Assembly: GCA_036172245.1 (NCBI GenBank) | Contig: JAYWIR010000098.1 | Coordinates: 186,001-230,438, forward strand | Direction of reading: 5' to 3' | DNA: 44,438 bases | Source of the DNA: Raillietiella orientalis | Lineage: Eukaryota | In this document: positions 712 through 41,167 of the stretch, in pieces | How the letters are laid out: each line of letters begins with the position of its first letter | Position numbering within the stretch: the stretch's first letter is position 1 | The notes under the pieces: model-generated | What the model was told of the DNA's origin: nothing | The model's database searches: none | What the model saw: the letters and a program-made list of their open reading frames with translations, nothing else | Made by a program: the position numbers and the translations under genes

Positions 712-2563
712 GCACCTGCCGCGCGACTATCCCGGTACGCCCGCGGTGTCAGCATATGCACGACCTTATGCTGCTGCTCCCTATGTCCACTTTGGCATCG
801 GCGTTCGAGGAGTTCTTCGACCTGCTAAGTCGGGGAACCGAATTTGGGGTGAACCGGGCGAACGCGTCCATCATTCCAATAGGTGCGGCGTGGGCAGGGC
901 ATCCGGACTGGGTCCGTTTGGGGATCTTCACGGTACGGTACTTCAAGTACCTCGGTGTACCGATGGGTGATTATCTCCCTTCGGATGCGTGGTCCAGCTG
1001 CCTTCAAAAGTTAGAGACGGCGATCGGCCCGTTCCTGGAAGGCAAGTTTCACTTGCCGGAACGGGCCGCGGTTTGGAACGCTTTTGCGGCCCCCATCCTC
1101 CGCTTCTTGCTTTTTGTTTGACCCGCCCCCAGAGAATGCAAAAATAGGACAAAGGACCTCCTCCGCATAGCCCTTTGGGGCAAGGGGAGGCCCCGAGTCC
1201 CTCTGAAGGACTTGTGCGCTCCGCGTCAGGACGGCGGCCTTGGCCTCCGGACGCTGGAGCACGTGGAAATCCAGCTGCGGTGACGAACCCTCGCCATCGC
1301 AGCGAAGATGTGGAGCACCCCTTGGTGCGTTCCGGACCGCTTCCTCGCCACGCGTGTGTCCCGATGCGAAGGACTCGCGTCGTTTCTTCTGTGCTTTGGC
1401 CGGAAGATCCGAAGATGCGGCCTTATGCTCGGACGCATAGCAACCCTGGCGAAGACGAACGGTTGGATGGTTTGTGGCCCCGCCAACTCCTCCGCCTGGT
1501 TGGAGGAGTCTGCTGGCACATGGGCTAAGCAGAACCGAAGGAGTGAAAACAATATGAACTGCCTACGAATCGGCCCATACGCCAACCGCACCCTGCGGGA
1601 AATACTGGAATTTCCCCGGAGTCGCAGGTGGGCCTTGACGACCCTACTTGCTTCGGCGATGCCCTACCTCCTGAAGGCGCTTCAGGATCGCCAGAAGCCG
1701 AGGTGGCAAGTCACCTGCCAGATCGCAGGCAGGGAGAAGATGTTAAGCGGCTGGACCACAGGAGAACTGGTGGACGCCACGACACCGAGCGTCCAGCCGC
1801 GTGGATTAATGAGATGGGGCAAGCTGCTCGCCATCCGTACGGATGTGCTGAAGTGGCCCCCGGTACTGAAGGAATCCAGGATCCTGCCCCTTAAGTGGCA
1901 AGAGTCGGCGTTGCTACTGCTGCTCTGGGGTTTACCCTGCAACGCACGCCGCTTCCACTGGACAAGGGGAGCTGTGGATCCTGAGTGTGTCAGGTGCGGA
2001 GAGCGGGAAGCCCCCTCCCACCTTATTGTGGACTGTGCTGCCATCCGACCCCGCTGAGAACGGTTCGGGGCGACCCTCGGGCTCCCTACGGGCAGCACCC
2101 TTAGAGACGTTCTTCGGCCCCTCTTCGTGAAGGATGCACTGCAGCCAGCCGCAGCCATCGCAGCCTTGTGCTGTGTTAGTGGCATCGTGGCGGCATGGAG
2201 CGACGCCAATAACGAAGGTGTGGGTGCAGGGATGTCATCCCATACGCCCAACGCTTCATGCGGAGAGCTGTCGGAAGGCCCCAACTGGAAAATATACGGA
2301 CGGACCTCGAGGGCTTCCTTCAACGGATGGGCCCTCCTCGCAGCGTTTAGTGATCCCTTCCCTGCCCTCCAACTTCTTTTTGTCTGTTTATTTTTTTTAT
2401 TTTTCTTTTTGTTTTATCCCCATCCCCCTTCGCTGCTGAGGAACGCTACGCTGGGCTGCGTCCCGGCGTCCTGGCAGGTCCAGTGTATATAGCCGTGAGC
2501 GGGGCCTTGTACCGCGGATGTAGAGTTTTACCAATAAACGCCCCGGGCGTACCTGGGTGTAAA
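712..2563 (+). mobile_element. 5'-truncated Tx1/L1-clade LINE: end of RT, C-terminal domain, 3' UTR
   Basis: Frameshifted YADD region (PGTPAVSAYA-DLMLLLP), KYLGV, C-terminal CVRCGEREAPSHLIVDC (ORF 1308-2057), T-rich 3' UTR, AATAAA 2533-2538, terminal hairpin 2542-2557. Confidence 0.9.
2533..2563 (+). terminator. LINE 3' terminus: AATAAA, stem-loop, short A-rich tail (representative copy)
   Basis: AATAAA-CGC-CCCGGG-CGTA-CCTGGG-TGTAAA; equivalents at seven other 3' ends. Confidence 0.65.
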
Positions 2564-2946
2564 CCTCCAAGGCTGGCAAAAAGGCAGTGAGGTGTCCGGC
2601 CTCCTCCGAGGAGTCGGTAACTTCCGACCCCGAAGCGCAGGCCGGAATCCATGTTTCCATCTCCGTGGCACCCCGCCGGAAGGCTGGAAGGAAGTCCAGG
2701 AATCCCCGGAAAGCCCCTCTCCAGGTCCAAGGCGTGGAGATAACTTCCGACTGCGAGGGTGCCATGAGCGTGGGAGAATCCCGGGAATCGTCACCCGAGA
2801 GACCACCACGCACAGACACGGAGGAGATGGAGGGGGTTGAAGCCGGAAAGGTACCCAAGGTGCCTGAGGAAGCTGAAACCATAATGGTCATCTCACCCGC
2901 CTCGGAAGAGGCGCGTTCCCCCCCCACCGTCAACTTCCCGGCAGTA

Positions 2947-3942
2947 ATGCCGGGAATCTCCTCCCACCGTCGTCTGCGCATCGCCGTTTGGAACGTGAAC
3001 GGCATGACAGACGCCGGCAGGAGACGAGACATGTCCGCCATTCTAGGATCGTTCGACCTTGTGCTGCTGCAGGAGATCCATGTGATCTCTGCCGAACAAG
3101 CGCAGGAGATCGAACGCATATACGGAGGGCGGCTGTGGTATCTAAGTGGAACATCGAGAAGTTGCGGTGTCGCCTACCTCCTTCGGTTCGCCATCGAGGC
3201 CGCCGCCCGTGGAGTTCGGTTCAACGATCACGGTCGTGTCGGCCAGCTGAATCTCAGCTGGTATGACTCGATCAACGTGATCGTTACGAACGCTTACGCC
3301 CCGAGCGGAGCGGACCTGACGATCAAGAGGGCCAGGAAAGAAATTTTCCTTGCCCTCTATCGCGACTGGTTGACCCAGGCAGGCGTGCGGAATGCCCATC
3401 TGGTTGCAGGCGATTTTAAGGTTCGTCTGAAACCGGATGGGCCGAATCACGAGCGTGAACTGGTCAACGAGGTGAGCGCGGCGGTGCAAACATGTAATTT
3501 GTTGGCCAGTGTACCAGGGATGGAGGATAACATCGATCACGTGTTCCTTGACGAGCACCTGTGCACTCGTGTGGGCAGGCGCTGCAAGTTGCCGTGCGAG
3601 TTATCCGACCATCGACTAATCGTGATTGAAATCCATCAGCGCGACAATGGCTTCCCCTCGTCAGCGTGGCGTTTGCCAGGGGACTGGCTGAAGCTCCCGC
3701 ACGCGACGGAACATCTCCGCACGTTTATACGGACCTTCAGGATGCAGAAACTTCAGGATTGGGACCGCTTCAAACGGTCGGTCCAGGAGTTCTGCGACCA
3801 GTTCCCTCTGCACCGCCTACCAGCGAGATTTGGGGACGGGGTACGCAACGAACGAGCCTATCTGCAGGCTCGTCGTTACGCCAGGACCCCCGACATCAGC
3901 AGGCTGGCGGAATACAAAGCGGGAGCCGAGAGGCAAGCCTAG
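2947..3942 (+). pseudogene. ORF2 apurinic/apyrimidinic-like endonuclease domain plus linker, ending at a premature TAG
   Basis: ATG at 2947 in a TAATG overlap; full APE motif set in ORF 2587-3942; the stop replaces the W of the conserved RQAWQSG. Confidence 0.9.
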
Positions 3943-5150
3943 CAGTCAGGATCGGCCAGATTGCTGGATGATCAGGGCCAGGAGCATTCGGCACCCGCAC
4001 AGATCCGCGGTCTGCTGCGGCGTTTTTACACCTCCCTGTACGCAAGAACGCCTTCCGAGCGGGATTTTTTACGAATCCTGCTTCCCAAAGGCACTCCTGC
4101 GATCGGGAAAGAGGACAAAAAGTCCCTCGACGAGTCTTTCACGATGGGCGAGATCATCTCGGCCATCGGAAAGCTCAAGAGGCGAAAGGCTCCAGGAAAG
4201 GACGGCCTGTCCGCGGAGTTTTATCAATTTTCCGCGGCTGAGCTAACCCCCCTCGTACATCAACTCACCTTGCTCATACCCAGACAGGCGACGTTCCCGC
4301 CTCGTTTCGTTTGGCAAAGGTGCGGCTTCTCCCTAAGGGAGGAGATCTGAGGAGCATGAACAACTGACGTCCCATCACAATAGTGAATGCGGATGCCAAG
4401 TTCATAGCTAAGGTTTGGGCTCAGCGGCTGGGATGGGTTGCCAATGCCTTCATCAGCCCGGAGCAGACGTATGCGGTTCCTGGGCGAAGCATGGAGGCGA
4501 ACATGTTCCACGCTTCCACCTGGCTAGAGCTCCAACACGAAAGGGGTTTGATGCGCACCGGGAATTCCGGTGAGTCCGTCAGTCATGCGACGGATGGTCG
4601 TATGGAGGAGGGAGCACTTGCGGTCGCTGTCGACTTGCGTAAAGCATTCGACAGCGTCGACCAGAATCTCCTGTCGTAGCTTCTGGAACGCTTAAGCTTC
4701 CCGGCCTCTTTGTTGGCCTACCTGCGCTCGAGATGGCGCGATGCACTCATTAACGTCTTTTTCAGCGAGCAAACCGTGAACGCCGTACCGGTGCGACGCG
4801 GCATACGGCAGGGAGACAGCCTGAGCCCCCTGCTCTTTAGCGCCTTTTTCGAATTGGTGCTGAGAGCGTACAGGGAGACTCTGGCGCACCTGCCGCGCGA
4901 TTGTCCCGGTACGCCTGCGGCTTCGGCATACGCGTACGATCTTCTGCTGCTGCTCCCTATGTCCACCCAGACTTTGCGGTCGAGGACTTCTTCGACCTGC
5001 TGTATGAGGGTATCGGACTTACGGTGAACAGGACGAAGTCGTCCGTAATGCCAGTCGAAGCGACGTGGGCAGGGCAGCAGTACTGGGTCCGTATGGGGTT
5101 ACCCGCAATAAGGTACTTCAAGTACCTTGGTGTGCCTATGAAGAATTATT
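3943..5150 (+). pseudogene. ORF2 reverse transcriptase domain, frameshifted and with stops
   Basis: Split over ORFs 3961-4350, 4383-4679, 4710-5027 and 4901-5152; catalytic motif decayed to YAYD. Confidence 0.9.
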
Positions 5151-6725
5151 AACCAGCGGAAACGTGCTCCGACTGCCATCAGAAGGCTCACTGGACGATC
5201 GACCCGTTGCAGAACGGCAGTTTATTCCTTCAGGAACGAGCCGCGGCGTGGAACGCGTTTGCGGCTCCCCTGCTTCCTCCGTTGCTTTCTCTTTGCCCCC
5301 TACTCTGCGGGATCAAGGAAAAAAACGAAGGAGCTCCTAAGGATCGCTTTTCGGGAAACAGGAAGTCCCTGAGTCTGTCTTTCGGATTTGTGAGTTCTTC
5401 GTCCAGATGGTGGTCTCGGCCTCCTGACGCTGCAGCGGCTGGAGCTGCAGCTCCAGTTTCCGATAGTTGCTTTAATGACAGATAAGTGGTAAACCCCCTG
5501 GTGCGTCCCTGCACGTCCCTTCGTCGAGCAGAGGAACCACGGGAAACGCGGGAATCTCGTCCTACTTTGCACTCCGAAGACCGAAATGCCACTGCAAAAT
5601 CCAGCTTCAGAGGGCGGCCAAACAAGTAAAGATCAAAATGAGATCGGTCTTCGTACGCTTCGCGAACGGTACTGCCTGGCTGCCGGAAACCTTTCGCACG
5701 TGGGCAATGACTCAAGAGCAGAGCCCTCAATACGAGAAATAGCTCTATCCCGACTGCACGTCCACCGCACGCTCCGAGAAATCGTCCAGGATCCCCGAAG
5801 TAGAGCGTGGGCACAATGAAACTTCCTTGCTGCGGTACTGCCTACCCTACGGGATCATGTATGAAGCGACATCGCGGCACAATAAGAGGTTGCTGTTAAG
5901 ATCGGCAACAGGGTAAAGAAGATAGGGGATTGAAGAACGGGCCGGCTGACGAACGCTGCGACTCCGAGGACCACCCCAAAATGACTGTTGCGCAGGGGCG
6001 AGTTAATGAATGTTTTGGAAGAACATCGCGAGAGGCTCCCGGTGCTCATGGGCTCGCACACTGTCCCAATTAAATGACAACATTCGGCACTGCTGGTGTT
6101 GCATTGGGACCTTCCCTGCATCTCCCGCGACACCACTGGTCGCAGGGGGGTGTCAACCCTAATTGTGTGAGGTGTAAGGAGAGGAAAAATCTCACTCACC
6201 TGTTAGTGGACTGTATTGCCCTCCGTCCCTTGCATGAGTTCTTTGCCGCGGCCCTGGTTATCCCCGAAAGCAACCCCAGAATCGCTTTGCGCCCCCTCTC
6301 CGTCCGTGACTCCCTGCCTCTTTCGGCCTGGCTTGTAGCCCAGTGCTGTCTACGCGGGATCGTGCTGGCACGGAGCAAAGCGACACGAGGATCCAGAGAC
6401 AGGCATGCCACGGTGTATGCCGCCCGCTTCCTGCGGTTGAGGACGCGATGACCCATCGGAAATCCTCCATTCAGCAACAGCTTACCGGCATCCTCCAGAG
6501 GATGATGGATCCTCCCAGCAGGCAGTGATCCCTTTCCGCTCCCTCCCTAGTTTTGTTAATTTTTTTGTATTTTTTTTGTTTCGTATACCCTCCCCTCTGC
6601 TGCTGAGGTCGACCGCGCCGGTCGGCACTCCGGTAGCCCGGCTTGCTGATACTTTCTAGGGCGTGGCTGTACTGCTGGTTCACTCAAAGTGTAGATAGGT
6701 TTATTTGACAAAATAAACGTCCCGG

Positions 6726-6890
6726 CGAAGCGGGATTCAGTCAAGCGCCGATGCCTGCATGAACGCAGGAAGCAGAAGCAGAAACTTTTCGGCATAGGTC
6801 GACACGGCATGCGTGCCGGGACATGAGCTCGGTACGGTTGCCAAATTCTCCTTGTATGCCCTTAGCACCAACTCAAACTAGATGCTGAAG
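6726..6890 (-). mobile_element. Short LINE RT fragment (YADD region)
   Basis: Minus translation FSI*FELVLRAYKENLATVPSSCPGTHAVSTYAEKFLLLLP matches the RT of other copies. Confidence 0.8.
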
Positions 6891-11500: not shown

Positions 11501-12560
11501 GCGCGCCTGGAGAAGGAGCGGGCCTGCAGAAAGACTCTGCGGTTGGCTACACCCTCTCCGAAGCCGCGCGGAAGCTATTGCAATGCAAACTGGCAGCAAA
11601 ACTCGCGGATCGATCTTTTCAGATTGTCTCAATCCGATAACTAACTTATGACAAAGCCGCGGAGGTACTAACGAAGATGCTCCACCACCTCCGGGTGACT
11701 TAGCCAGCGTGCCGGCATCCTCCAAACACAGTTTGGAGGCCCTTGACTGGCGGGAGCAACTCGATCTCAAACCTGATGTGGTCTGAAAGCACACACGGCA
11801 TTTAAACTTCCTGATTCACTCGAGAAAACAAGTATTCATCGAGGAATACATGGTAAGGCAATGCAGCCATTACAGGGTCGTTAGCGAAGAAGTTGCACGC
11901 GTACACGGACGCGCACATCCCTTCCACTAGCAACTTTTCCCTTTTGTGTGCTCTGTTCTCGCTCAGCAGGTGGACGTTAAAATCCCCCGCAATAAGATGC
12001 TACACAGTAGAGTGACAACGAGTGAGTCAGTGGCTCCGAACGTTACCGAAGAACTCAATCCTTTGGGCTCATCGCCCAGCAGCGCTCGGCGCGCACACGT
12101 TGGCTACGAAAAGGGCGATCGAGTCGACCTTTTCGTAGCGAACGTGACCACTTGAGTACAAGCTGTCCCACTCGGCCTTCCGTGTCTAAGCGAACGCTGG
12201 CACCGCTCCCGCCAAAGTTCCCCTTACGAGGAAAGCGAACGCCTCGGCTTCACCGGGTGAAAACGTACGAGGAAAGCGACGAAGCACGTACGTGCGACGT
12301 CCATCACGGAAGGCAGGACTTTCTTGCCACCGATGGAGAACGGAGTACGAAGAAGGCACTGCACAAGTGCAGCGTTTTTGCACCGTATCTTCGTGTATTC
12401 CATAATGCCTGCAGGCATGATGGCAAGGAGATTCTCTTCTCGAAAGCCGATCCGGACGTACTCATCGCTGTGCTCACGCCCGGTCTCCTCGTTGAGGGGC
12501 CCACTGACCTTATAACGAAGCGCGGGCATGTTGCTGGATACCACACAGGACTGCAGCTAC
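8561..12560 (-). mobile_element. Degraded LINE with a type-B ORF1 fragment, internal deletion, APE, RT, C-terminus and 3' UTR
   Basis: 12224-12544 is homologous to the N-part of the 20690 ORF1 (RYKVSG..LLAIMP..LLRTPFSI). APE motifs GRVGQL, NVCAPS, HLIAGDFN, LSDH at ~11780-12260. RT QTYAVPGRS (10570-11007) and DYADDLL (10141-10527). PNGLLRW near 9420. Confidence 0.88.
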
Positions 12561-13559: not shown

Positions 13560-14205
13560 TTTTTACCCGGTCAAACAGAGACGTTTATTAAAAAACCTTA
13601 CAGAATTTGCGGTGCAAGGACCCGCTGCGGCCAATAAATCTAAGGAGCTGTCGCGTGGACGGTGCACATACCGACTTGACACTCCACGTCAAAGGATGGA
13701 CATTGAAGAAAAAAATATAAAGAAGAAAAAAGAAAAATTAAAAACACTAGTTATTTGGAGGCTCAAGAATGGATCACCCTCCGTTGTGGGGAGGCTGCAT
13801 CCTTTGCAGTATGCTGACGAGGTTTTAATAGAGATTTCTTAGTTGGGGCCGTCGGGATGCTATTCACAGAAAGCGAGCAGAATACTCCATGACGTTCTCT
13901 CCGTTAACATCCTCTGCTTCGTCGAATGCAGTACAAGCTGCCACAATGCCGGGTACGCAGCACAGAGATGCCATTACAACGGCTGGCTGCAGGTTGTCTC
14001 GCACGATGAGAAGCCGAAAAACGTCTCTGGGAAGGTTACCTTCCCGGATTCCTAAGGTAGAACCGAAGCGTCATCACAGGGGCCAAAGGGCATCACAGTC
14101 AACTAGAGGGTGCGGAAGGCTTTCCGCTCTCCACATCGGGCACAGTTGCGCTTCAAACCTGTGTCCTTCTAGGGAGCGGAGGTGGTTTGGCATTGCTCAG
14201 CGGTC
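13560..14205 (-). mobile_element. LINE 3' fragment (C-terminal finger, 3' UTR)
   Basis: Minus strand ESLPHPLVDCDALWP..SLCCVPGIVAA; T-rich UTR; AATAAA on minus at 13584-13589. Confidence 0.85.
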
Positions 14206-14208
14206 TAG

Positions 14209-16834
14209 TTAGTGCGAAGGTTTTCGGTGCTTTTGTCTGGTGTGTAGGAGCGCCGGTGCCCCACGAAACAAATGCCTGAGGACACCGCGATGGAAATCAG
14301 GGGAGGAGAGGTGACTTCCTCGCCACCACCCATGAAAGTGAGGGTGTCCGCCCACAAGGAATCCGGGGCACTTGCCAAATCGGAATCGGGGGCAACCGTC
14401 CCTTCGCGACCCTCTTCGGCAGCGACGAGGAGTTGGAGTGCCGTCGTTCCTGCAATTTCCCCGGCTGCAATAGCGAAGCAGACTGCCTACAAGGACAGCG
14501 GCTACAAACCGTCGCTGAACCACAAGGTAGGCAGCGTGTTCGACGAGAAAATTGCACGCTAATTTCAAATGGAGTTGAAAAGACTGAATGTGAGGAAGGA
14601 AGACATCGAGAGGCTCTCCGTCCTTAGTGGGGGGCACGACTTGAGCTGACTTGCACAGAGGCAAGTCTGGCACAGCGCCTGCTAAACAACCCCATTACGG
14701 TAATCGCCGCAGGATCTTCCCTGTGACAGAGGACCGGTCCGTCGTGGTCCACCTCACGGGCGTATCACTCCAAATGGACAAAACCAGCATATATAAGGAG
14801 TTGTCAAAACACAGCAGTGTGCACGCGTATTAAGCCAAATCCAATGTGGTCGGAGCGTACGAAAGGTTATTCAGTGAAATGGCCGCTGCCCGCGTCGCAA
14901 TACCGGAGAATAATGGGTTTCCCCACAAACTAAGTATCGGCGAAGAAAAAGTCGATGTTAGGTGCGTGGGAAAGCCCCAGTATTGTAGCCATTGCAATGC
15001 TACAGGGCACTTAAAAAAGCTGTGCCATAACATCCAATGCCGCTTATGTGGAAAAAAGGGCCACATCCGCAAGGTGTGCCCAAAAAGAGAAATCCCGGTC
15101 CCTTTCGCTGCCAAAAAGGCAAAGGGGAAACAATCGAGAGAGACAAATACCATGAAGCAGGCTGTAAGGAGCCAGATGCCAGTCCCTAAGCCATCCCAGC
15201 AAACGTCGGTTCAGAGCACTCCCGACGACGCTGGCGACGGCGAAGGCTGGCAGATGGTACAGCCCAGATGGAAGCCTGGGAGTTCCAAACGAGGCGCGGG
15301 GAAAACAAAAACGCAGCGCAAAAAACCGTGCCGCGAAAAATTCCGCTCTTCTTCTATAACATTAGAGCGTGTGGAGGCACTCGATGCCGCCACCGGGCGA
15401 GCAATTCCCCCCTTGCGTCCGCCGAAGCTGCGACGGTCGATGACGAACCCTCTGGAGAACCAGAGGGGGAACCAGGCGCCGCGCTCAACGCGATCGACGA
15501 GGCCGCATTCCAGCAGGCGGTGGAAGAACTCGAGGCAGAACTGCAAGGCCGTGAGAAGAAGTCGCGGATAGGCTTACCAAGACCGGCCGCGAAAAAGGCT
15601 CCGGATGCAGGAACTGCGTCCTCATCGAAGGCGCCACCAAAGATGACGGGACGCAAGTTCTAGAATCCCAGGAGGTCCGTACGGATCAAGAAAGAGGAGC
15701 ATGAAATGGCACCCGAGGGGGAAGACGGCAACGTGAGACGCGAGGGTGGGAATCTCTCATTCCCAGACACCGTGCAGCTGGCGACCCTCATAGAGGAGGA
15801 AGTACAGGTGGGTAAAACCCTTCTTCCTCTGCACGGCCCTAAAAAAGGCTCGGCCTCCATGAAGGAGGGAGAAGCGGTGCGCAACGCACCCCCTCCTCCT
15901 AGCGTCCCGCCCCAACAGGTGGCGGGAGCCCTATTGTTACTTTCCCAGGATTAACATCTGGACTCGCCTGTCGCCGTAGGAACCGCGTAGCCTGCTGGAA
16001 CGTCAACGGGCTGCGCGACGACGGAAACAGGCGGGATTCGGCCGACACCCTGCGCGACTCCGACCTGGCGCTCCTGCAGGAGATCCACGTGATCACCGCG
16101 GAGAACGCCCAGGAGATCGAAAGGATCGCAGACGGTTGTCTATTTTTGCAATGCGGCGCTCGCAACACCTGTGGCGTCACCTTTTTTATGAAGCCAGCAG
16201 TCGCCGCCTTCGTCAAGGACGTACGCTTCGACAACGACAGTCAGGATGGCCAGCTCATTCTTAGGTGATCCGACTCGATCGACCATGTCGTGACCAATGT
16301 GTACGCTTTGAGCTGGGGATGCGGGTACGGGGAACGTTTCCGGTTCCTCGAAACCCTGATGCGGGACTGGCTGGCGGATACAAACGTACGCAAAGTGCAT
16401 CTGATCGGTGGGGATTTCAACATCCGTCTGCTCTCAGGTGTGCCTTGCGGACAAAAAGACGCAGCCAACGAGCTGTGCACTGCTATGCGCACGCGCAACT
16501 TGTTGGGGGACCTACCGGAAATTGTCCAAAGCGTAGACCACATCTTGCTTGACGCCAACCTGTGCCCACGGGTCGGCAGACGAGGCAAACTTCCGTCGAC
16601 GCTATCGGACCATTTCCGGTTGATATTCGAGGTTATGGCTCGCGACAAAGGACCACCATCCAGAGCGTCGCGTGTCCCTCGGGGACAAGACGCGCATCTC
16701 GGGTGCGCCGGAACATCTCCGCCAAGTACTGGGAGGCGTCATTCTCCGGAATCTCTAATTCTAAGACCGCATGGTTTCGGTTCGCGAGTTCTGCGAGGAG
16801 TTTCCTGTGCACAGCCTGCCCCAGGGATTTGGTG
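14209..16834 (+). mobile_element. 5' half of a type-A LINE: 5' UTR, disrupted ORF1, APE, start of linker
   Basis: MPEDTAME start at 14272; knuckles CSHCNATGHLKKLC and CRLCGKKGHIRKVC; APE WNVNG, LIGGDFN, VDHI, LSDH; cut at LPQGFG. Confidence 0.9.
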
Positions 16835-18130
16835 TTGTCACCCGGGTACGCTTGGAGCGTTGATTTAAAAAAAACTCTCTACCTTCGTTGGTATGAGGTT
16901 CCACTACGGCCTTAGACACGCCACTTGTCAAGACACCAGGACGCAGCCCGACGTGGCACTCCCCGACAGCGGAAGGGAATGAAGGAAAAAACAAAAAAAA
17001 AAATAAAAGGGATAAACAAACAGAAAAAAAAAAAAAAAAATTTGGAGGGAAGGGAAGAGATCACCGGACGCTATGCAGAGGGCCCATCCGTCGAAGGAAG
17101 CCCTCTAGGTCTGTCCACATTCTTCCCAGATGTGGCCATCGGGCAGCTCTCCGCAAGAAGCGTACTGCGTGCTGGATGACTTCCCTCTCGTTCCAATCTA
17201 CATCTTCGCTGCTGGCATCGCTCCATGCCGCCACGATGCCTCGAACGCAGCACAGGACTGCGAGGGCTGCTGCTGGCCGCAGGGCGTCCCGCACGAAGAG
17301 GAGGCGGAAAACGTCTCTGTGTTCACTGCCCGTAGGGAGCCCGAGGGTCGTCCCGAACCGTTCCCAAAGGGGTCGGAGATCATCACAATACAATGTAAGA
17401 TAGAGGAGCGACTTCTCCTCCCCGCACCTTGCACACTCATGCCTTACACTTCCCCGCGTCCAGTGGAAGCGGCGCGCGTTGCAGGGTAGACCCCAGTGCA
17501 ACAGTAGCAGCGCCGTCTCTTGCCACTTTAGAGGAAGAAGCCTGGATCCGATGAGAAGTGGAGGCCACTTCAGGTCATCCTTCGAGATGCCGAGCAGCTC
17601 AACCCATCTCAGAAATCCACGCGGGGGAGCGCTAGGGGTCGTGGCGTCTGCCAGTTCTCCCATGGTCCAACCGCTCATCTTTTTTTCGTTTCCTGCGATT
17701 CGGCAGGAAACTTGTCACTTTGGCGTCCAGCCGCTGGTTAGCGCCTACCGTAGGAAGAAAGCGTCGAACCTAAAGGGGTGGTCTTCGCCTACGTGCTTCT
17801 TGCGGGACAATCCAGAGTGCTCCGTAGGGTGCAGCAGGCGTTGGGGCCGAATCGCAGGCGGTTTCAATTTTCGGTTCCTGGGTTGTTCAGGTTAGCCCAC
17901 GTCGCAACGGATTCCTCCAGCCAAGTGGGGGAGTTGGCGAAGCTGCATATAGTCCAGCCGTTTTCTCTCACTAGGGCTTCGATGCGTCCAAGGAGGAGGC
18001 CGCATCTCCTGAATTTCCTGCCGGGGCACAGAAGGAAAGTCGCGAGTCCTTGCGTCGTGCATACACGGCTGGCGAGGATGCGGGCTGGAGCGCACCAGAG
18101 CGTGTTCCATGTCTTGGATGAAGGAAGAGG
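16835..18130 (-). mobile_element. LINE 3' fragment (post-RT, C-terminal finger, 3' UTR)
   Basis: ORF 17061-17678: LPLKWQETALLLLHWGLPCNARR..CARCGEEK..LAVLCCVRGIV; A-tracts on + are the T-rich UTR. Confidence 0.9.
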
Positions 18131-18197
18131 ATTTTGGCAATGGTAAGGGAATCAGGCTGATGCTCTTTGTTTATGGGTTCTTTGGCTGTTGGGTTAA

Positions 18198-18320
18198 TTT
18201 CCAGGCTTGACGCTCGGCCCGGGCTTGATATTCGGTCAGGCGACGGACATTGGAGGTCCTCTCGTACCGTCGGGCCTGTAAATAGGCCGTATGGTTGCGA
18301 GCCCCCTCCTTAAATCCGTG
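18198..18320 (-). mobile_element. LINE ORF2 linker fragment, probably the same element as 16835-18130 after loss of the RT
   Basis: Minus translation GFKEGARNHTAYLQARRYERTSNVRRLTEYQARAERQAW. Confidence 0.75.
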
Positions 18321-20610
18321 GCGAGCGGACGTGTTTTTCCTTCGCTCCCCAGTGAGTCGACAGGAAGCGGGTGTTTTGTGGTGTTTTTTGTGTGGAACAT
18401 CTTTGTTTTCCGATATGAGCGATGCCTGAGGAAATCACGATGGAGGGGAGCCTTGCCTACCCCCACAGCCTACAGAAAAAGGGGCGTACGCCCCGGAATC
18501 GCCCTCGCCTCCCAAGGCGAGGAGCTGGAGCACCATCGTGACCGCGCCTAGCGAGCAGGCCATGGCCTAGATGGTGGCCTACCGGACAGCTGGGTACAAG
18601 CCCAGCTTAATGTACCAGGTAGGCAATCTCTTTGACGGGCGAACTGCACGCGCTTTTTCGAAGGCGCTGCAGAACGCCAACGTATTAGAGAAGGATATTG
18701 ACGGTCTATCCGTGCTCAGCGGGGATCAGCGCGTCGAGGATGTCTGTAAGCACATCACCTTTGCGCAAAGCTTTATCACTACCCCGCTGAATGTGGACAT
18801 GCGCAAGATCCTGCCAGTCATGATGGACCGCTCCGTAGGGGTCCATCTGACTGGTATCACCAGCCGCATGACGCGGTATGCGGTTGGTGATTAGCTGAAA
18901 AAATACGGCGAAGTACACGCGCTATGGCCAAAGGCCACAATCTTTGATGATTACGATAGCCTTTTCGGAGGGCAGGCCGCCGCGCGTGTGACAATTAAGA
19001 AGGATAGTGGGCTTCCCCACAAACTAGAGGTTAATGACGAAGTCTTAGAACTCTGGTAAGTTTGGCAACCCCGCTTTTGTGGCCACTGCAATGCAGTAGG
19101 ACACCTTCGTAAGAGGTGCCCGAACATTGTGTGCCACTAATGCGGGGAGAAGGGCAACGTGCGTCGCGTGTGCCCTAAACTCCGCACTCCGGTGCCGCCT
19201 GCCGCCAAGAAAGCGCAGGTAAAACGCGGAAAATTGATCGAAAGACGAAAAAGAGATACTGGCCGCCAGCAACCGCAAGCCCTTGTTCCTCTTACACAGG
19301 CGTCGCAAGAAAAACCTTCCGAAGACGCGGGATTCCAGGACGGCTGGAAGCTGGTTAAGGCCAGAAAGGAAAACAGGGTGCCCCCGCGGAACCCGCGAAG
19401 GCGGTAAAAAAGACCACCGGCAAGGTGAAAAAAACCTGGGATGCGCTCCAAGACTCTGCGTGAATGTACGGTGGCACTGGAACGCATAGCCGTTCCCGAG
19501 ACTGCCACCCGGGGCGACGAACCTCCCATCGCCGTTTCCGCCGTGCCCGAGGTTCGCGAACGCGAACCCTCTGTGCAAACAGGAGCAAACGGTCCAAGCC
19601 GAAGAAACTGCGTTCGCGCAGGCGGCGGAAGAGCTCGCGGACACGCTGGCAGAGAGTGAGAACCCCTCGCCCAAGGCCGTGCGAAGGCCGGCTCCGGCGA
19701 AGAAGGCCTCACAGGTGAGTTTGATCTGGGGGACGAAAGTACATCCTGCTCCTCGGAGGCACCCTTCAGGAAGTCGGAACGCTATTCCCAGAAACCCAGG
19801 AGGCGCCTCCCCTCCACAAGCGAGGAGGAGAAGCAGGAAGGTAGCGGGAGCGTGGGAATCCCGGAGGGGGAGCTCTCACCCTCGGAAGCCGTCGGGCCGG
19901 CATCCCCATGGAGGAGGGTAAGCAGGGGGACGAAGTCCTCCCTGCAGTTGCAGAGCCTGAACAGCACCTTCCATGGAGGAGGGATAACAGGTAGGCGCGA
20001 ATCCAACTGAGGGTGACCCGCTCGAGGCGCCGTTACCCATGGAGGGGGGGGAACAGGTGCAGTCAGCGCCTTACCCTCCTCCTCCACCTTTCGTCCAGCC
20101 CCAACAGGTGGCGGAAGGCGCATCGCCATCTTTCCAGGAGTAACACCTGGGCTCGCTACTCGCCATCGGATTCGCGCCGCCTGTTGGAACGTCAACCGGC
20201 TGCGCGACGACGGTAACAGGCGAGATACGGCCGACACCCTGCATGAGCTCGACCGGGCCCTGTTGCAGGAGATTCACGTGGTCACCGCGGCAGACGCCCA
20301 GGAGACCGAGACGATCGCGAGAAGTCGGTTGTATTGGAGATGTAGCCTCCTTAACACCTGCGGGGTCGCTTTCTTCGTGAAGCCAGCCACCGACGCTGCC
20401 GTGAAGGGCGTGCGCTTCGCTGACGGCGGTCGGGTCGGTCAGCTGATTCTCAGCTGGTCCCACTTCATCGAACTGATCGTCACGAATGTGTATGCACCCA
20501 GCGGAAAACAGGGATACAGCGACCGCACTAGGTTACTGGAATCACGGAAGTGCGACTGGCTGGCGGAGACGAACGTACCGAAGGCTCACCTGATAGCGGG
20601 AGATTTCAAT
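18321..20610 (+). mobile_element. 5' half of a type-A LINE (5' UTR, disrupted ORF1, APE up to GDFN)
   Basis: GAGCGGACGTG 5' motif; AYRTAGYKPSLMYQVGNLFDG; two knuckles at ~19078-19173 (one with a stop); APE ORF 20263 ends HLIAGDFN then switches to a type-B 5' end. Confidence 0.9.
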
Positions 20611-22475
20611 CGAGTGCGGACGTGTTTTTCTTCGCTCTCGTATCCGTGCTTTCATCCGCTTCATCTTGGCGTCGTACATTTTGACGACGATGTCGACCCA
20701 ACCCGAAGCTACTGAAGTTGGAGGAACAGCATCCGGATCTGCAATCGCGGAACCGACGGCCGCCTCCACTTCGTCTTTCTCGCCAATGGAGAGGAGTTTT
20801 GCTGACGTTGCTGCCACAGCAGCCGTCAAAGGGAAACCACTCGACGAGTCGGAGTTGCGGGCATACGTAGCCCAAGGCTATAGACCTGCTTTCCGATATA
20901 AGGTGAGTGGTTTTCTTTCTGCGCGCGACGGGAATACGTTCAAAAATGAACTGACCCGTGTTGGCGTGCGGGAGGAGGACCTCCTCGCTATTATGCCCGT
21001 AAAGGATATGGGCTATTCCAAGGTGCGTTGCAAAGACGCTGCACTTGTGCAACGCTTGCTGCGCACCCCTTTTTCGATCCGTGGCCAGAAGGTCTTCTCG
21101 GCCGCCATGGACGACTCATTTGTGGCGGAGATTTTCGACATCGAGTCGGAAATCTCGGATATTGATATTCGGAACGCGTTGGCGAAATTCGCCACGGTCC
21201 ATGCGCTGTGGAGGGTGCGTTGCCACCTCAAGGACTTCCCGTCCATACACATCGGAGTCGCAGGAGTCCGGCTTACAATGCCGAACCGCCGTCTGCTGCT
21301 CACCAATCTACAGGTGAAAGACACGGTCGTTAACCTGTGGTTCGTGGGCAAAGTAAAAACGTGCGAGCAATGCGGGAAGGAGGGGCATTGTTTGGATAAA
21401 TGCCCCTCTGGAAAATGCCGTTATTGCAAACTATCCGGGCACCAATTGAAAAATTGCCCGGTTCTTTTGCGAAAAAAGGCAGCCGCGGAGCTCATTCTTA
21501 AAAAACAAAGCGCGGATAAAAAGAAAAAATCTGCGAAAAACCTGCAGACCTCACGGCAGAAATTCCGAAAAAACTCGAGGCGGAAGGTCGCCCCAAAGCA
21601 GCAGGAAACCTCGCACGCGAAGCCCTGCGCGCCCTCTCTCGCGGCAGGGGAGCCGCAAAAGAAAGGGTGCGGGGAATCCGGGGCAATGGTAAGTCCCCCT
21701 AGGCGCAATAGCTGTCCTTCCCAAGCACGCCCGGCTCTTTCGGAGTTCGAGCACCCGGCGGGGACGTCAATGGACAACGGCGGTAAGGACACTTCCAGTA
21801 CCATCAGATCCATTCCTTTACCTCCTGCAGTGGCTGAGAAGCCCAAATCGGGTAAGAAGGGTTGTGCAGTGTCGACTTCGAAAGTCGGCAAAAAAAAATC
21901 CGCGTCGCGATCCAACACCGCGAAAGCGGAGAAAAATCTCACGCCGTCGCAGTCGGAGAAAAAGCTCTCGACCGGCGCGGATGCCGTGCCAACGAAGGGA
22001 TTAAAAGCCCTTCCGAAGGCAGCGTCCAGGACGAGCGTGTCGGACCCATTGAAAGTGCTCCGGTCCAAAGACGCGGATGGCTTCAAAGATGGCAATGGAG
22101 CACAATCTCCATTTACGGCGCCACGCGAAGTGAGGAACCGCAATGAACTAAAGAAGACTTCAGCGAAGGTCCCTCGTGCAACTGCGCGTGAGCACGCTGA
22201 AAACGCGCGCGCCGGGAAAGCAGCCGTCACCAAAAGCGATGCTCTGGTGACGGAAAACGACAACAGGACAGCTATCAATCCAGCAGAACCTGTCACTACT
22301 TCGCCGAAGGCCGAAACCCGATCGAACATGCGCCGGTCGAACTCCGAAATGGTTGTCGTTCCGATCACCGAGACGAGGACAACTCGTTCAAAAGCGTTTG
22401 CGCGCCAATCAAATGTAGGCAGCCAGGCAACGCCCGCCGTGAAGCAACGCGAAGTCTCCACGAAACCCGACGGGG
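20611..22475 (+). mobile_element. 5' portion of a type-B LINE (5' UTR plus ORF1)
   Basis: Starts CGAGTGCGGACGTG; near-identical to 43454-44438; cut at 22476 by an antisense 3' end. Confidence 0.88.
20616..20636 (+). promoter_or_regulatory. Conserved LINE 5'-terminal motif GCGGACGTG(T/C)TTTTC(C/T)T(T/G)CGCTC, DPE-like internal promoter candidate
   Basis: Also at 18325, 41078 and 43459; contains GGACGTG, matching the RGWCGTG downstream promoter element. Confidence 0.55.
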
Positions 22476-22519
22476 TTTTTCACCCAAGTAAGCCGGGGCT
22501 TTTATTACTAAAATTCTGA
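20690..22519 (+). CDS. Type-B LINE ORF1 protein with two CCHC zinc knuckles and a long K/S/A-rich tail; last ~14 codons come from the antisense neighbour
   Basis: Uninterrupted ORF (track 20666-22519; first ATG 20690) with CEQCGKEGHCLDKC and CRYCKLSGHQLKNC. Confidence 0.85.
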   Translation: MSTQPEATEVGGTASGSAIAEPTAASTSSFSPMERSFADVAATAAVKGKPLDESELRAYVAQGYRPAFRYKVSGFLSARDGNTFKNELTRVGVREEDLLAIMPVKDMGYSKVRCKDAALVQRLLRTPFSIRGQKVFSAAMDDSFVAEIFDIESEISDIDIRNALAKFATVHALWRVRCHLKDFPSIHIGVAGVRLTMPNRRLLLTNLQVKDTVVNLWFVGKVKTCEQCGKEGHCLDKCPSGKCRYCKLSGHQLKNCPVLLRKKAAAELILKKQSADKKKKSAKNLQTSRQKFRKNSRRKVAPKQQETSHAKPCAPSLAAGEPQKKGCGESGAMVSPPRRNSCPSQARPALSEFEHPAGTSMDNGGKDTSSTIRSIPLPPAVAEKPKSGKKGCAVSTSKVGKKKSASRSNTAKAEKNLTPSQSEKKLSTGADAVPTKGLKALPKAASRTSVSDPLKVLRSKDADGFKDGNGAQSPFTAPREVRNRNELKKTSAKVPRATAREHAENARAGKAAVTKSDALVTENDNRTAINPAEPVTTSPKAETRSNMRRSNSEMVVVPITETRTTRSKAFARQSNVGSQATPAVKQREVSTKPDGVFHPSKPGLLLLKF

Positions 22520-22740
22520 CATTACAGAACTTTGTAGTAAGGTCTTTGTTGTTAAAAAAGAAATTTCCTTTTTCGGACGTCAGACGTTCATTGAAGTTCA
22601 ATAGCACTTGTCTTTATCGACCCGGAGGCCGATAAAGTCCTTCACTGGCGCCGGGACGGGGAAATTAAACAGAAAACAAAACAAAAAAAGTAAAACGTCT
22701 GGAAAGCAATGATTTTGGGTAGCGGGAGCTAGGGAGGGGA

Positions 22741-25317
22741 TTACCGTGCGCCGTGAGCAGGCCTTTGCATCTGGTTTCGTATGCGAACAAGTGTCGGTAA
22801 ATGTTTTTGAAGTCGGCGCCAACGGCCGCCTTTCTCCGAGGAGATCGCTGCCCAGTTGATGGCATTCCGGCTGGTCCTTTCTCTCCTAGACGCAGTCCAC
22901 TTCTCCGGGATACCGCGTATGCAGCAGAGCACTGCTACGCTCCCGGAGGCTGGCAAGCCGTCTAGCGTCAGAAGGCGTATGAATATATTTTTCGGGTCAC
23001 CCTCCCGAATGTTGAGGATCGACGAGAATCTGTCCCACATTTCGTGGAGGGCAACACACTCCAGAATCATGTGGGGAAAGGTCTCCCTTTCCCCGCACTC
23101 TGCACAACTAGCATCCACATTCCCCGATGTCCAGGGAAACAGGCGTGCTCCGCTCAAAAGTCCCCAGTGGAGCAGAAGCAACGCCGTCTCCTGCCACTGC
23201 AGGGGAAGGGTGCAGTTGTCCCATGACGCTGGTGGCCACTTCACCTTCTCCGGAGGTGTACCGAGCAGCGCGCCCCAGCGTAAAAGTCCGTTCGGCGAGG
23301 CACTCGGGGTACTAGCGTCCGCTAGTTCCCTCGGCGTCCACGCCTTCACTGATTTTTTCCTGCCTCCAATGAGGCACGACACTTTCTACGATGCCTGTTG
23401 GTGGCTGTTTCGAACTTCCCCGAGGGAGGGCAGCACTGGGGCAAGGGGGGTGAAGGAAGCCCACAGAAGTTTTCGTGGGTTGGAAACGATCTCCTGGAGT
23501 GGCTGACCAGCGTACCTCCCTCTGCGGAGGCAGAAGTCCTCTTCGCTGGTGCCATTGATCTTCGCCCATGCGGATACGGACTCCTGAAGCCAGGTAGTCC
23601 AGTCCGCTGGGATGCAGGAGATCCAAGGGTTGTCTCCCATCAGAGCAACCAAATCCCGCTATTGATAATTACAATGGTTCAGGCTGCGATCGTTGGCTAC
23701 CAGGATTGAAGTCAATCCGAAGCAGCCGGTTGCCCTGTGAGCAAGAAGTCTTGCTGGTGCACACCAGGGTGCTGTCCAAAACTTTGCCACAAGGGCAAGT
23801 TTTCTGAACTGGAGCTGTCGCTCCATGCGCTCCAACGTCAGGAGACCAAGTCCACCGTCCCTGCGTGGAGCGCACAAGCCTTTGAGCCGGACGCGAGGCC
23901 TCCGGTTGCCCCAGAGGGCTTTACATATAAGGCCCTGAGTCCGTGTCCTTATTTGATAAGGTGTAGGGCACACAAAAGGTAGGAGGCGAAGGAGGGGGGC
24001 CGCGAAAGCGTTCCATACCGTGGCCCGTTCCTGCAAGTGGAACTTGCCGTCCCGGAACGGGCCGATCGCCAGCTCCACCTTTTGTAGACGGTCGGACCAG
24101 GCTTCTGCAGAGCAGAATTCCCCCAACGAAATGCCAAGGTACTTGATGTACCTGCCCGTTGGGATCCCCAAGCGGATCCAGTCAGACCGTCCGGCCCTCG
24201 TCAAGTCGGTGAAAAGGAACGACGATTTCGTCCTGTTTACCTGTAGGCCTGTCCCACGGTATAGCAACTCGAAGAAATTCTCAAGCGCCGATGCCGGGGT
24301 GGACCCGGGAAGCAGGAGCAGAAGATCGTCGGCATAGGTCGACACGGCAAGCGTGCCGGGACACGAGCACGGCAGGGTTGTTAAAGTCTCCCTGTATGCT
24401 CTCAGCACCAACTCAAAGTAGATGCTGGAGAGCAGGGGGCTGAGGCTGTCACCCTGCCGGATGCCACGACGAACCGGCACGCCATACACCTTGTGGCCGC
24501 TAAAAGAGACGGTAATCATCGCATTCCGCCAGCAAGAGCGCAGGTAGGAAATGAGGGAGGGTGGGAAGCCCATGCGACCCAGGAGCTCCAAGAGGAGTTC
24601 CTGGTCCACACAGTCGAACACCTTGTGGAGATCGACTGAGAGCGCTAGGGCCCCCTTCCCCGCTTGGGGGTCCCTTCCCAGCCCGACTGGCGGCCCCAAT
24701 GTGGGGTTTCCGACTTTCCCTATCCCTTTCTTCTCTCTTCTCTGCAGGTGCACCCATGTGCTTGCGAAGAAGAGCTTGGCATCCATACTTCGCCCGGGAA
24801 CAGAATAAGTCTGCTCCGGGCTAATTACGGATTCTGCCACCTGCCCCAGACGCGAAGCCCATAGCCCTGCTATCAACTTGGCGTCCGTATTCACGATCGT
24901 GATCGGACGCCAGTTCTTTAAATTCCTGAGGTCTCCCCCTTTCGGAAGGAGCCTCACTCTGGCTGACCGAAACGAGGCGGGAACATCGCCTTCGTCTCGG
25001 ATCAGCCTTGTCAGCTGAAGCAGAAGGGGTGCCAGCTCTTCCGCGAAGCTCTGATAGAACTCCGCGGGCAAGCCGTCTTCCCCTAGAGCTTTACGCCTCT
25101 TGAGCCTTTTGATACCGGCGACAATTTCGCCGGTGGTAAAAGGCTCGTCAAGGCTTTCCATCTCCTCCTCCCCTATTGCCGGGGCGCCATCCTGAAGCAA
25201 GCGCCGAGAGGCGTTTCGATCCGGGGGCTCCCTGGAGTAAAGGGAGGAATAAAAACTCCGCACGAGATGCCGTACCAACGCCGGGGACGAACATTCCCGG
25301 CCCTGGTTGTCCAGCAA
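22741..25317 (-). pseudogene. ORF2 reverse transcriptase and C-terminal CCHC domain; one frame broken by two stops
   Basis: ORFs 23659-25317, 23386-23652 and 22741-23382 share a frame. LLPKGGDLRNLKNWRPI and EQTYSVPGRS resemble Xenopus Tx1 ORF2 as recalled. Also RGIRQGDSLSP, STYADDL, KYLG, DGGLG, CAECGERETFPHMILEC. Confidence 0.93.
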
Positions 25318-25783
25318 GCTAGCCGACCCGGATTGTCAGGCTTGGCGTTCGGCCCCGGCGTGGTACTCGGCCAGGCGACGGACATTAGTGGTTCTCTCGT
25401 ACTTACGAGCCAAGAATGTTTACCGCTGGGGGCGTGCACATTCGTGACGATCAGATCGGTCTAGTCGGACCAGCTGAGAATCAGCTGTCCGATCGGACCG
25501 TCGTCATCGAAGCGCACGCCCTTCACGACAGCGTCGATGGCCGGCTACACAAAGAACGCGACCTCGCAGTTGTTGCGGATGCTGCATTGCCAGTACACCC
25601 GCCCACCCGCGATCGTCTCGATTCCCCGGACGTCTGCCGCGATGATCACGTGGATCTCCTGCAGCAGGGCCAGATCGTGCACACGCAGGGTGTCGGCCGT
25701 ATCTCGCCTGTTACCGTCGTCGCGCATCCCGTTGACGTTCCAACAGGCGGCGCGAATCCGACGGCGCCTGGAGAGCCCAGGTG

Positions 25784-27410
25784 TTACTCTTGGGAAGATG
25801 GCACTACGGCGTCCGCCACCTGCTGGGTCGGGACGCTGGGTGGAGGAGGAGGGTCAGGTGCTGAGGGCACCTGGTCCCTCTCCACCATAGGTAACGGCGC
25901 GTCAAGCGGGTCACCCACAGGTGGGGTAGCGCCTACCTCTTCGCCCTCCTCCATGGGGGCGGACTGTTCAGGGTCGGCACCTGCAGGGGGGACTTCACCC
26001 CCCTGTTCACCCTCCTCCATGGGGATGGCCGGTCCGACGGTTTCCGAGCGTGGGAATTCCTACTCCGAACTTCCCACGCTGGCGACGGCTTCCGTCTTCT
26101 CCTCCTGGCTCGTGGAGGGGAGGCGCCTTCTGGGCCTCTGGGACTTGCGTCCCGACTTCCTGGAGGATGTACTTCCGGCCCCCTGGTTTAACTCACCTGT
26201 GGGGGCCTTCGCCGGAGCCGTCCTACGCACGGCCTTGCGTGAGGGGTTCTCACGCTCGGCCAGCGTGACCGCGAGCTCCTCCGCCGCCTGCGCGAACGCG
26301 GCGTCCGCGGTTTCGACCGCCGCGATGTCGCGCGGCTTACCCTCTGTGTAAACAGAGGGTTCGCCGTCGCGAGCCTGGACGCGGCGGAAACGGCGAGGGG
26401 AGGATCGTCGCTCTGGGTGGCAACCTCGGGAACGACGATGCGTTCTAGTGCCACAGTGTACTCGCGCAGAGTTTTCGAGCGCGGGCCGGGTTTTTTCGGC
26501 TTACCGGCCGTCTTCCGCTGTTTTTTCTCCGCGGGTTGGAGTTTCTTTGGCTTTCTGGCCTCTGCAAGCTGCCACCCCTCTTCGCCTTCCATCGTTTCGG
26601 AAGGTTAATCCTCCGGCTTACGCGCCGGAGTTTAAGGTGTTGGCAGCTTGTGCTGGCCCTTTTCCGCTTTAGTTCTAGAGACCTTTGGTGCGCGTTTCCC
26701 CTGAGCTTTTTTTGCGGCAAAGGGAACCGGGGTGGGGCGTTTGGGGCACACGCGCCGAACGTGGCCCCGCTCCCCGCACACATGGCATTGTATGTCAAGA
26801 CACCGTTTACGTAGGTGTCCCACGGTATCACAATGCTCGCAATACCGGAGCTTCCCTACATACCGCAGTTCGACGTTTTCTTGTGCCACCTGTAGTTTGT
26901 GGGGAGGCCCACAATTCTCCTTTACGGTGACCCGTGCTGCAGCCTGACCACCAAAAAGGCTATCGAACCCGTCGAAAATGGTGGGTTTCGGCCACAGTGC
27001 GTGCACCACACCGAACTTACGTAGTTCCTCACCAAGCGCTGACCGCGTCTTGCGGCTGGTGATGCCGGTCATGTGGACCACCACGGAGCGGTCCATTGAC
27101 ACTAGCAGGATCTTGCGGCCGTCTACGTTCAGCGGCGCATGGATTAGGCGGTGAGCCAAGGTGACGTCTTTGCAGACCACCTCGACCCGCTGCCCGCCGC
27201 TGAGGACGGAGAGGCCGTCCAGATCCTTCTTTGTGACATTCACGTCCTTCAACGCTTTGCTGAAAGCGCGCGCTCTTCGGCCGTCGAACAAGTTGCCTAC
27301 CTGGTAGACAAGCGATGGCTTGTACCCGGACGCCTTGTATGCGGCCATCTCCGCCATGGCTTCCGCGCTGAGCGCAGCCACCATGGCGCTGCATGTCCTC
27401 GGCATGGCCG
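25784..27410 (-). pseudogene. Type-A ORF1 (two CCHC knuckles), frameshifted
   Basis: Segments in ORFs 26632-27867, 26188-26592 and 25784-26020. Confidence 0.88.
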
Positions 27411-27519
27411 GAGATGATTCCGGGGCGGCTGCGCCTGCTCCAGTAGGCTGTGAGGGCGAACGACACGAAAGCTGCGTTAACGAAACGTAAGTCGTCCACG
27501 GCCACAGCACGCTGAAAGC

Positions 27520-27965: not shown

Positions 27966-28136
27966 CCCCGCCTTGATTGGGTGAGTCCTGCCGTCGATGA
28001 CTCAAAACACTTCCAAGTTTCCCTGTTCTTGGCTATTCCTGGAGTTCACTCGATGCCTCGTCCGTATTTTCTGATATTGTCTCGTGTTATTTCCGAAGAC
28101 AAGTGTATTCTTTCGTGAGACTTAGAATTCTAAAAA

Positions 28137-41071: not shown

Positions 41072-41167
41072 TGGAGAGCGGACGTGCTTTTCCTGCGCTC
41101 CGCCTGCGTGGCAAAGCGAGTGTTTTTTCTTCTTGAGTGATTTGTGCGTGCACATCGTCGGTGTCCG

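Follow-up and report, generated by a model that had tools for sequence, protein, structure and literature searches.

A 44,438-nucleotide (nt) window of the Raillietiella orientalis genome (assembly GCA_036172245.1, contig JAYWIR010000098.1, positions 186,001 to 230,438 of the forward strand) contains two copies of a long interspersed nuclear element (LINE), here called type B, and the 5' end of each is joined to the same nucleotide of another LINE, type A, within the codons for the catalytic motif of the type-A endonuclease. Coordinates given below are those of the window, which is the whole stretch of DNA that was analysed. The best explanation of this arrangement, and on balance a probable one, is that two full-length type-B elements inserted independently into old type-A copies, and that the reuse of one bond reflects target choice by the type-B machinery. 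That a young family made two independent hits into old, diverged hosts is well supported by the sequence comparisons, and a dedicated LINE-targeting LINE is plausible from the two copies available, each seen only at its 5' junction.

The junction shared by two type-B copies

The junction reads GCGGGAGA(T/C)TTCAAT on the host side and CGAGTGCGGACGTG on the insert side, and is located at 20610/20611 and at 43453/43454. The bond used lies directly 3' of the Asn codon in the Gly-Asp-Phe-Asn (GDFN) motif of the apurinic/apyrimidinic endonuclease (APE), with the host side ending in GGAGAYTTCAAT. The 20-mer composed of TTCAAT and CGAGTGCGGACGTG has exactly two matches in the 44,438 bases, at 20605-20624 and 43448-43467, and two matches were reached in 0 of 100 dinucleotide shuffles. 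An earlier note on this DNA had described the junction as shared by two sites, and the scan finds those two places and no others in the window.

LINE fragments were mapped by tblastn. The first host, A1 (18320..20610, plus strand), is the 5' part of a type-A LINE, delimited by the tblastn map, the 5' terminal motif and the junction alignment. It is composed of the 5' terminal motif, an open reading frame 1 (ORF1) with a CCHC knuckle, a low-complexity linker and the N-terminal half of the APE, and ends at the GDFN Asn codon. The second host, A2 (41073..43453, plus strand), is likewise a type-A 5' part but comes from a different lineage, with the same order of 5' terminal motif, ORF1, low-complexity linker and APE N-terminal half, and it ends at the same Asn codon; it has an open ORF1 and a single frameshift, located in the N-terminal part of the APE. 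Following A1 is B1 (20611..22477, plus strand), a type-B LINE that starts from its own 5' end, with a 5' untranslated region (UTR) at 20611-20689 and an ORF1 that begins with the ATG at 20690 and stays open for 596 codons, up to the point where B1 is cut by the 3' end of a third type-A element, A3. This end at 22477 was set by a loose contig end from a public sequencing run together with a minus-strand 3' terminal motif at 22493-22506. Following A2 is the second type-B copy, B2 (43454..44438, plus strand), which runs off the window end and has an ATG at 43533 and a nonsense codon as codon 4 (43542-43544).

The 5' terminal motif GCGGACGTGTTTTTC has four strong matches in the window, at 18325, 20616, 41078 and 43459, and starts A1, A2, B1 and B2 alike. 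Because type B begins with the terminal motif that is common to the A1 and A2 starts, the junction is the natural full-length 5' end of type B. After this motif come a 79-nt leader and the long type-B ORF1, which has 28% identity to that of type A. Two Cys-Cys-His-Cys spacings are visible by eye in the type-B ORF1, for which Pfam gave 0 families at E<=0.01; the Pfam zf-CCHC family was found in the ORF1 of A2 (E 1.6e-4) and of A3 (E 5e-3). Both type-B copies are in the sense orientation relative to the host APE (n=2), and 2 of the 2 copies in the window, which holds only these two, share an identical type-A flank.

Sequence identity between the two loci changes in a step near the junction. Upstream of it (20521-20610 vs 43364-43453) 15 of 90 positions differ, affecting 12 codons of which 7 are changed synonymously, and downstream (20611-20700 vs 43454-43543) 3 of 90 differ, so that both hand counts of the earlier note are exact. 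In a global alignment to the window end the step spans the full alignable length: upstream identity is about 50-90% per 60-nt block and about 82% across 19634-20587, and downstream identity is 87-100% per block, with 931 of 985 positions identical to the window end (94.5%). The step is significant when the left 81 nt are compared with the right 985 nt (Fisher p = 3e-4). The maximum-likelihood change point is at 20581-20593 and not at 20611, because the last 30 host nt differ at only two positions, both synonymous (28/30 identical). The young block may start up to 30 nt within the host flank, or the codons for KAHLIAGDFN may simply be conserved.

A further trace of the junction comes from the public sequencing run, which shares 14% of the window's words. 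Among the matches listed for it (6 of 47 loose ends, 8 of 53 pieces), a contig of 3,755 nt covers 20582-22477 at 96% identity, starting 29 nt within the type-A flank and continuing through the junction. No bridging joints on the window were reported from the run contigs among the loose ends listed, and stretches that the run leaves uncovered were given no weight as evidence. The contig sequence past 22477 is absent from the window at <=3 mismatches and has no match to any ORF2 fragment there. These matches hint that the contig may be a different type-B copy with the same junction.

Ages of the type-A hosts and the type-B inserts

The two hosts are old relative to each other. Between the ORF1 sequences of A1 and A2 (254 codons) the synonymous divergence (dS) is 0.99 and the ratio of nonsynonymous to synonymous divergence (dN/dS) is 0.18, with 50, 35 and 107 differences at the first, second and third codon positions, respectively, so that 107 of 192 differences fall at third positions. 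The APE N-terminal part (162 codons) has a dS of 0.39 and a dN/dS of 0.43, with 25, 22 and 45 differences by codon position. For the 43 codons directly preceding the junction the dS is 0.80 and the dN/dS 0.09, with 5, 3 and 14 differences. The three elements A1, A2 and A3 are equidistant (dS 0.99, 1.12 and 1.12; 80-82% nucleotide identity in the APE N-terminal part), and A1 and A2 are therefore not a sister pair. Judged from these substitution patterns, the type-A hosts are separate lineages that diverged under purifying selection, which agrees with the earlier proposal, borne out by the dN/dS of ORF1 and of the last 43 codons, that they diverged as active elements under selection.

The inserts present a different pattern. 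Between the ORF1 sequences of B1 and B2 (301 codons) the dS is 0.075 and the dN/dS is 0.71, with 19, 12 and 20 differences by codon position; the leaders differ at 2 of 80 positions. The differences between the copies are evenly spread, with no long identical tract. The type-B inserts are young and nearly neutral, and the proposal that type B is a young family is upheld by this low dS and by the full-length 5' end of its own with which it begins at the junction. Host and insert ages are not congruent (host dS 0.39-0.99 vs insert dS 0.075), and together with the dN/dS of 0.09-0.43 in the hosts vs 0.71 in the inserts this makes a simple segmental duplication unlikely.

There are 7 in-frame stops in 512 codons of A1 vs 0 in 596 codons of B1 (p = 0.004), and A1 is older than its B1 insert. 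Because it is far more decayed than B1, A1 was probably dead before the insertion, and the stop counts weaken the earlier suggestion that type B inactivates the host. Since host and insert ages differ, the hosts did not arise by duplication of a single dead composite and the type-A part was not copied when type B moved, the comparison argues against a duplication, against a chimera amplified as a unit and against switching onto a live type-A transcript.

Occupancy of the GDFN site

The GDFN region is retained in five elements of the window. Both type-A elements that retain it are occupied (2/2), and the three non-A elements, D, E and G, are empty (3/3). Element D (14172..16860, plus strand) is a related LINE that exhibits 41-49% identity to type A in ORF1 and about 60% in the APE; its GDFN codons at 16413-16421 are uninterrupted and continue into IRL across 16421/16422. 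Element E (2563..6739, plus strand) is the ORF2 of a related LINE, with a complete Exo_endo_phos domain and reverse transcriptase (RT), in which GDFK at 3412-3420 is uninterrupted and continues into VRL across 3420/3421. In element G the GDFN codons (11976..11987, minus strand) are likewise uninterrupted and continue into VHL across 11976/11975; the ORF1 of G is the closest to the type-B ORF1 in the nest, at 37% identity. The third type-A element, A3 (22478..27500, outer end approximate, minus strand), has a 3' end that interrupts B1 at 22477/22478 and consists of ORF1, the APE N-terminal part to about amino acid (aa) 266, an internal deletion to about aa 435, the RT and a 3' end. A3 is uninformative on occupancy because the GDFN site lies in this deletion.

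The hexamer TTCAAT occurs 27 times on both strands of the window, 13 of these in the low-GC stretch at 28001-36500, and only 2 of the 27 sites carry an insert, both being type-A GDFN sites. Counting both strands, each type-A 5' part has a single TTCAAT, and the looser TT[CA]AA[AT] has one match in A1 (2.3 kb) and two in A2.

A second recurrent junction

At their full-length 5' ends, A1 and A2 also adjoin a common kind of site. It lies in two ORF2 remnants, on the antisense strand, at the 'GF' codons of the APE (about aa 418-423). The first, X1 (16870..18319, minus strand), is positioned head-to-head with the A1 5' end and contains the APE from about aa 423, RT aa 517-864 and a 3' UTR. The second, X2 (38082..41072, minus strand), belongs to a family other than that of X1, is head-to-head with the A2 5' end and contains the APE from about aa 418, RT aa 1-881 and a complete 3' end. 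The junctions are at 18317-18323 and 41068-41076, within 5 nt of each other, and the antisense 'GF' sites read TTAAATCC and CGAATCC. The two remnants are only about 62% alike over 120 nt at the junction, and homology-driven transfer therefore cannot explain this recurrence, which points to LINE-into-LINE hot spots as a property of this nest. Both hot spots, GDFN and antisense 'GF', have GGA(G)ATTT on the host sense strand and are rare AT-rich islands, which would fit an L1-like nick preference and keeps an ordinary reuse of motifs alive as a reading. Under target-primed reverse transcription, the flank between motif and insert would be a target-site duplication, with a length of 3 nt in type B, 8 nt in A1, 12 nt in A2 and 17 nt in D.

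The full-length 5' ends of D (14172), G (about 12826, minus strand), A1 (18320) and A2 (41073) all lie head-to-head with an opposite-strand, 5'-truncated ORF2 piece, and these partner pieces start at RT aa 743, in the linker, at APE aa 423 and at APE aa 418, respectively. Such head-to-head 5' ends are the pattern expected from antisense nested insertion. Twin priming or a simple inversion was rejected for the junctions of A1 and A2 with X1 and X2, given that the sense partner has a complete 5' end and the X piece is of another family. Remnant X1 resembles another element of the nest, F, at 74.5% of nucleotides, and an inversion around X2 does not fit the element layout.

Proposed insertion mechanism and alternative explanations

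In the favoured explanation, each type-B copy would have entered a type-A element that was already present and older than itself, of a different lineage in each case, in sense orientation and at the same phosphodiester bond. The type-B machinery would nick TTCAAT, an AT-rich hexamer in an element otherwise rich in GC, or the DNA next to it. The type-B RNA would be reverse-transcribed by target priming from a nick in the antisense strand of the type-A APE gene, at TTC^AAT or close beside it. A second nick 3 nt away, perhaps producing a 3-nt AAT duplication, would then allow the full-length type-B 5' end to be joined right after AAT. Recognition would extend past the hexamer, probably into the KAHLIAGDFN codons of type A, whose role in encoding the active site keeps them conserved across type-A lineages. 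The mechanism proposed is thus target-primed reverse transcription with a small stagger and recognition of a longer stretch.

Several points weigh against this explanation. The type-B 3' end, the host remainder, the target-site duplication and the type-B ORF2 with its endonuclease all lie outside the window, and no APE fragment starting at aa 287, directly after GDFN, is found within it; because A3 truncates B1 at 22477 and B2 continues past the window end, insertion into type A is deduced from one side only. There are only two type-B copies, both in one 44-kb nest, and the 29 host-side letters of the sequencing-run contig fall 2 below the 31-letter rule for bridging. The block of high identity perhaps starts about 30 nt inside the host, and a homology-dependent transfer would give the same picture. 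Finally, the 3' flanks of the nest elements have no common sequence, and because these related elements share nothing there, the family as a whole is not strictly site-specific.

A stronger version of target choice, considered tentatively and below even probability, is that type B is a parasite of a parasite. Its endonuclease would recognise 20-30 nt of the sequence coding for KAHLIAGDFN in a sister LINE, every type-A copy, dead or alive, would offer it a safe landing pad, and the nest would be the product of LINEs targeting one another. In this reading, the second recurrent junction suggests that type-A elements may themselves favour a site in other LINEs, in antisense and close to the boundary between APE and RT.

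A less likely explanation, though the most serious one without dedicated targeting, is that an L1-like endonuclease with a short AT-rich nick preference reused a hot spot, such motifs being rare in GC-rich LINE DNA and GAT TTC AAT being one of them. The low frequency of TT[CA]AA[AT] in the A1 and A2 parts is in keeping with this, as are the second recurrent junction, in which type-A 5' ends lie at antisense 'GF' codons of unlike hosts, the TTCAAA located 17 nt upstream in the 5' flank of D, and the termination of all four recognisable 3' ends in a short A run or CA. The occupancy of only the two GDFN sites among the 27 TTCAAT sites speaks against it, with a chance of about 1 in 351 if all sites are equally likely, as do the stagger implied by the two copies, which is identical, and the sequencing-run contig, which shares 29 nt of flank and not 6.

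It is improbable that a single type-B insertion was copied to a second type-A element by ectopic conversion or recombination, or that an old composite was duplicated and then overwritten from active type-A and type-B donors. The change point precedes the junction by 20-30 nt, and 28 of the last 30 host bases are identical, which is what a conversion tract that took a little flank with it would leave; the variation of dS among the type-A parts (0.99, 0.39, 0.80) hints at mosaic type-A lineages. Against this, the hosts are about 82% identical around the site and thus a poor substrate for homologous exchange, conservation of a catalytic motif would also account for there being only two differences in the last 30 nt, and the junctions with X1 and X2 recur between hosts too unlike for homology to reach. 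Overwriting 2.3 kb of type A exactly up to both junctions would need several special events, and spread by ectopic conversion is considered unlikely. Least credible of all is a chimeric complementary DNA (cDNA), in which the RT switched at the 5' end of the type-B RNA to a type-A transcript at a favoured position, with the variant that the chimera was then amplified as a unit: both type-A parts do reach a full-length 5' end, as if the RT had run to the end of a second template, and template switching is documented for LINE RTs in work cited in the excerpted text of PMC4494074, but the stop counts of A1 and B1 and a dS that differs about 5- to 13-fold between the type-A and type-B parts mean that the two halves are not of one age, and no homology is visible between host ATCCGTCTG and type-B CGAGTGCGG that would guide a switch at the same nucleotide twice.

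Relationship to known elements and database searches

Christensen et al. 2000 and Kojima & Fujiwara 2004 are reportedly sources on target-specific LINEs of the Tx1 clade. In the excerpted text of Kojima 2015 (PMC4494074), Tx1L in Tx1D of Xenopus laevis and other Tx1-clade LINEs are described as having copies at one position and in one orientation in another multicopy mobile element. The targets named in that excerpt include Mariner-N4_AMi for Tx1-Mar, Harbinger for Tx1-9_AMi, and long terminal repeat (LTR) retrotransposons for Tx1-8_Crp and Tx1-4_AMi, and target specificity was assigned there when >20% of copies were flanked by the same target sequence (PMC4494074). As far as the excerpt describes them, Tx1L/Tx1D, Keno and the crocodilian Tx1 families resemble the present case in that an APE-type LINE is found at one site and in one orientation within a multicopy element, forming composites. 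Unlike those families, type B has as its target the endonuclease-coding sequence of a sister LINE and is represented by two copies and a weak contig; the likeness is one of function.

The LINE Zepp is reportedly the subject of Higashiyama et al. 1997. According to the excerpt of Craig et al. 2021 (PMC8226300), Zepp of Chlorella and Coccomyxa and ZeppL of Chlamydomonas insert into existing copies and form dense, LINE-only clusters. The window is similarly a dense nest of LINEs within LINEs. Unlike Zepp arrays, which are described there as mostly 5'-truncated 3' ends, the nest has full-length 5' ends in B1, B2, A1, A2 and D, and it also differs from the arrays so described in its mixed orientations, its several families and its one junction that is exact to the nucleotide. 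The R1 and R2 elements insert precisely and in fixed orientation into a conserved multicopy sequence, the 28S ribosomal DNA (rDNA), and the upstream target may aid precise 5' junctions. Type B exhibits an R1/R2-like precision and fixed orientation, with the difference that the target is a transposon and not a host gene.

A limited literature search returned no LINE reported to have the coding sequence of another LINE as its specific target. The Rfam search at the gathering threshold identified 0 families in the window and no hepatitis delta virus (HDV)-like ribozyme at the type-B 5' end, and a tandem-repeat search of the window gave nothing relevant. The best match of the A3 RT in protein databases is 30% identical. 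For the type-B ORF1, the best match among 1.84 billion representative proteins is 34% identical, and one match was found at E<=1e-30. The A1 APE fragment with its read-through tail, used to seek junction-spanning gene calls, had 0 matches in the protein library. Among metagenome contigs, a peptide scan with the type-B ORF1 found 0 relatives and the exact 24-mer of the type-B 5' end had 0 matches.

Organization of the LINE nest

The window as a whole is a nest of related LINE pieces on both strands whose only interruption is a stretch of low GC at about 28-36.5 kb, with at least 15 LINE fragments adjoining one another over about 36 kb. The Pfam families identified in the fragments are Exo_endo_phos, RVT_1 and zf-CCHC. 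The low-GC island at 28001-36500 has 39-45% GC vs 55-61% in the LINE nest, and its sole LINE content is one old RT fragment (31269-31966). The island may mark where the cluster ends, or it may be ordinary genomic background.

Large internal deletions are found in three of the elements already described. A3 is without APE aa 266-435 (25417 region, minus strand), G jumps from ORF1 aa ~210 to APE aa 227 (12149-12197, minus strand), and X1 is without RT aa 1-516 (18118-18204, minus strand). In E, the low-complexity linker and the APE share one open frame of 459 codons (2563-3942), and the ORF1 frame of A1 continues into the linker; because these linker frames are continuous, ORF1 and ORF2 may be fused into a single frame in the E and A1 families.

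The LINE families of the nest have a common 3' terminus that consists of AATAAA, a short GC hairpin (GCCCCGG...GGGTG) and 3-5 bases ending in A. It is matched at 2533-2562, 6712-6739, 22478-22506 (minus strand) and 38082-38112 (minus strand), and four matches were obtained in 0 of 100 shuffles. The 3' end of X1 is without the terminal hairpin and adjoins D (plus strand) where D stops, at about APE aa 430-440 (16833-16870). The end of D and the start of X1 (APE aa 423, 18204-18319) are breakpoints in the same few codons in opposite orientation.

Next to the 3' end of X2 lies a 52-nt piece at 38021-38072, followed by an APE fragment, H (37600-38020), that starts from about aa 300. The piece is 90% identical to 11397-11448 in the opposite orientation, where the sequence encodes the first 17 codons of an RT, and may be filler DNA or a tiny host remnant. 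A joining of the X2 3' end to an APE right after GDFN, which would have given a 3' junction at the site used by type B, was considered here and rejected, both because 38072-38021 (minus strand) matches the plus strand of 11397-11448, antisense to the N-terminus of the G RT, and because fragment H does not include the APE before about aa 300.

Implications

Target-specific LINEs are known for rDNA, small nuclear RNA (snRNA) genes, microsatellites, DNA transposons and LTR retrotransposons. If the shared junction only means that an AT-rich motif, rare in GC-rich DNA, was hit again, it would be ordinary. If target choice by type B is true, the conserved catalytic-motif codons of a second LINE would join this list as a new kind of target. 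The case would also be a clean one of transposon conflict, in which type A could not easily mutate the target away without harming its own active site. Such targeting would further provide a mechanism for the build-up of LINE-only nests and possibly of centromere-like clusters.

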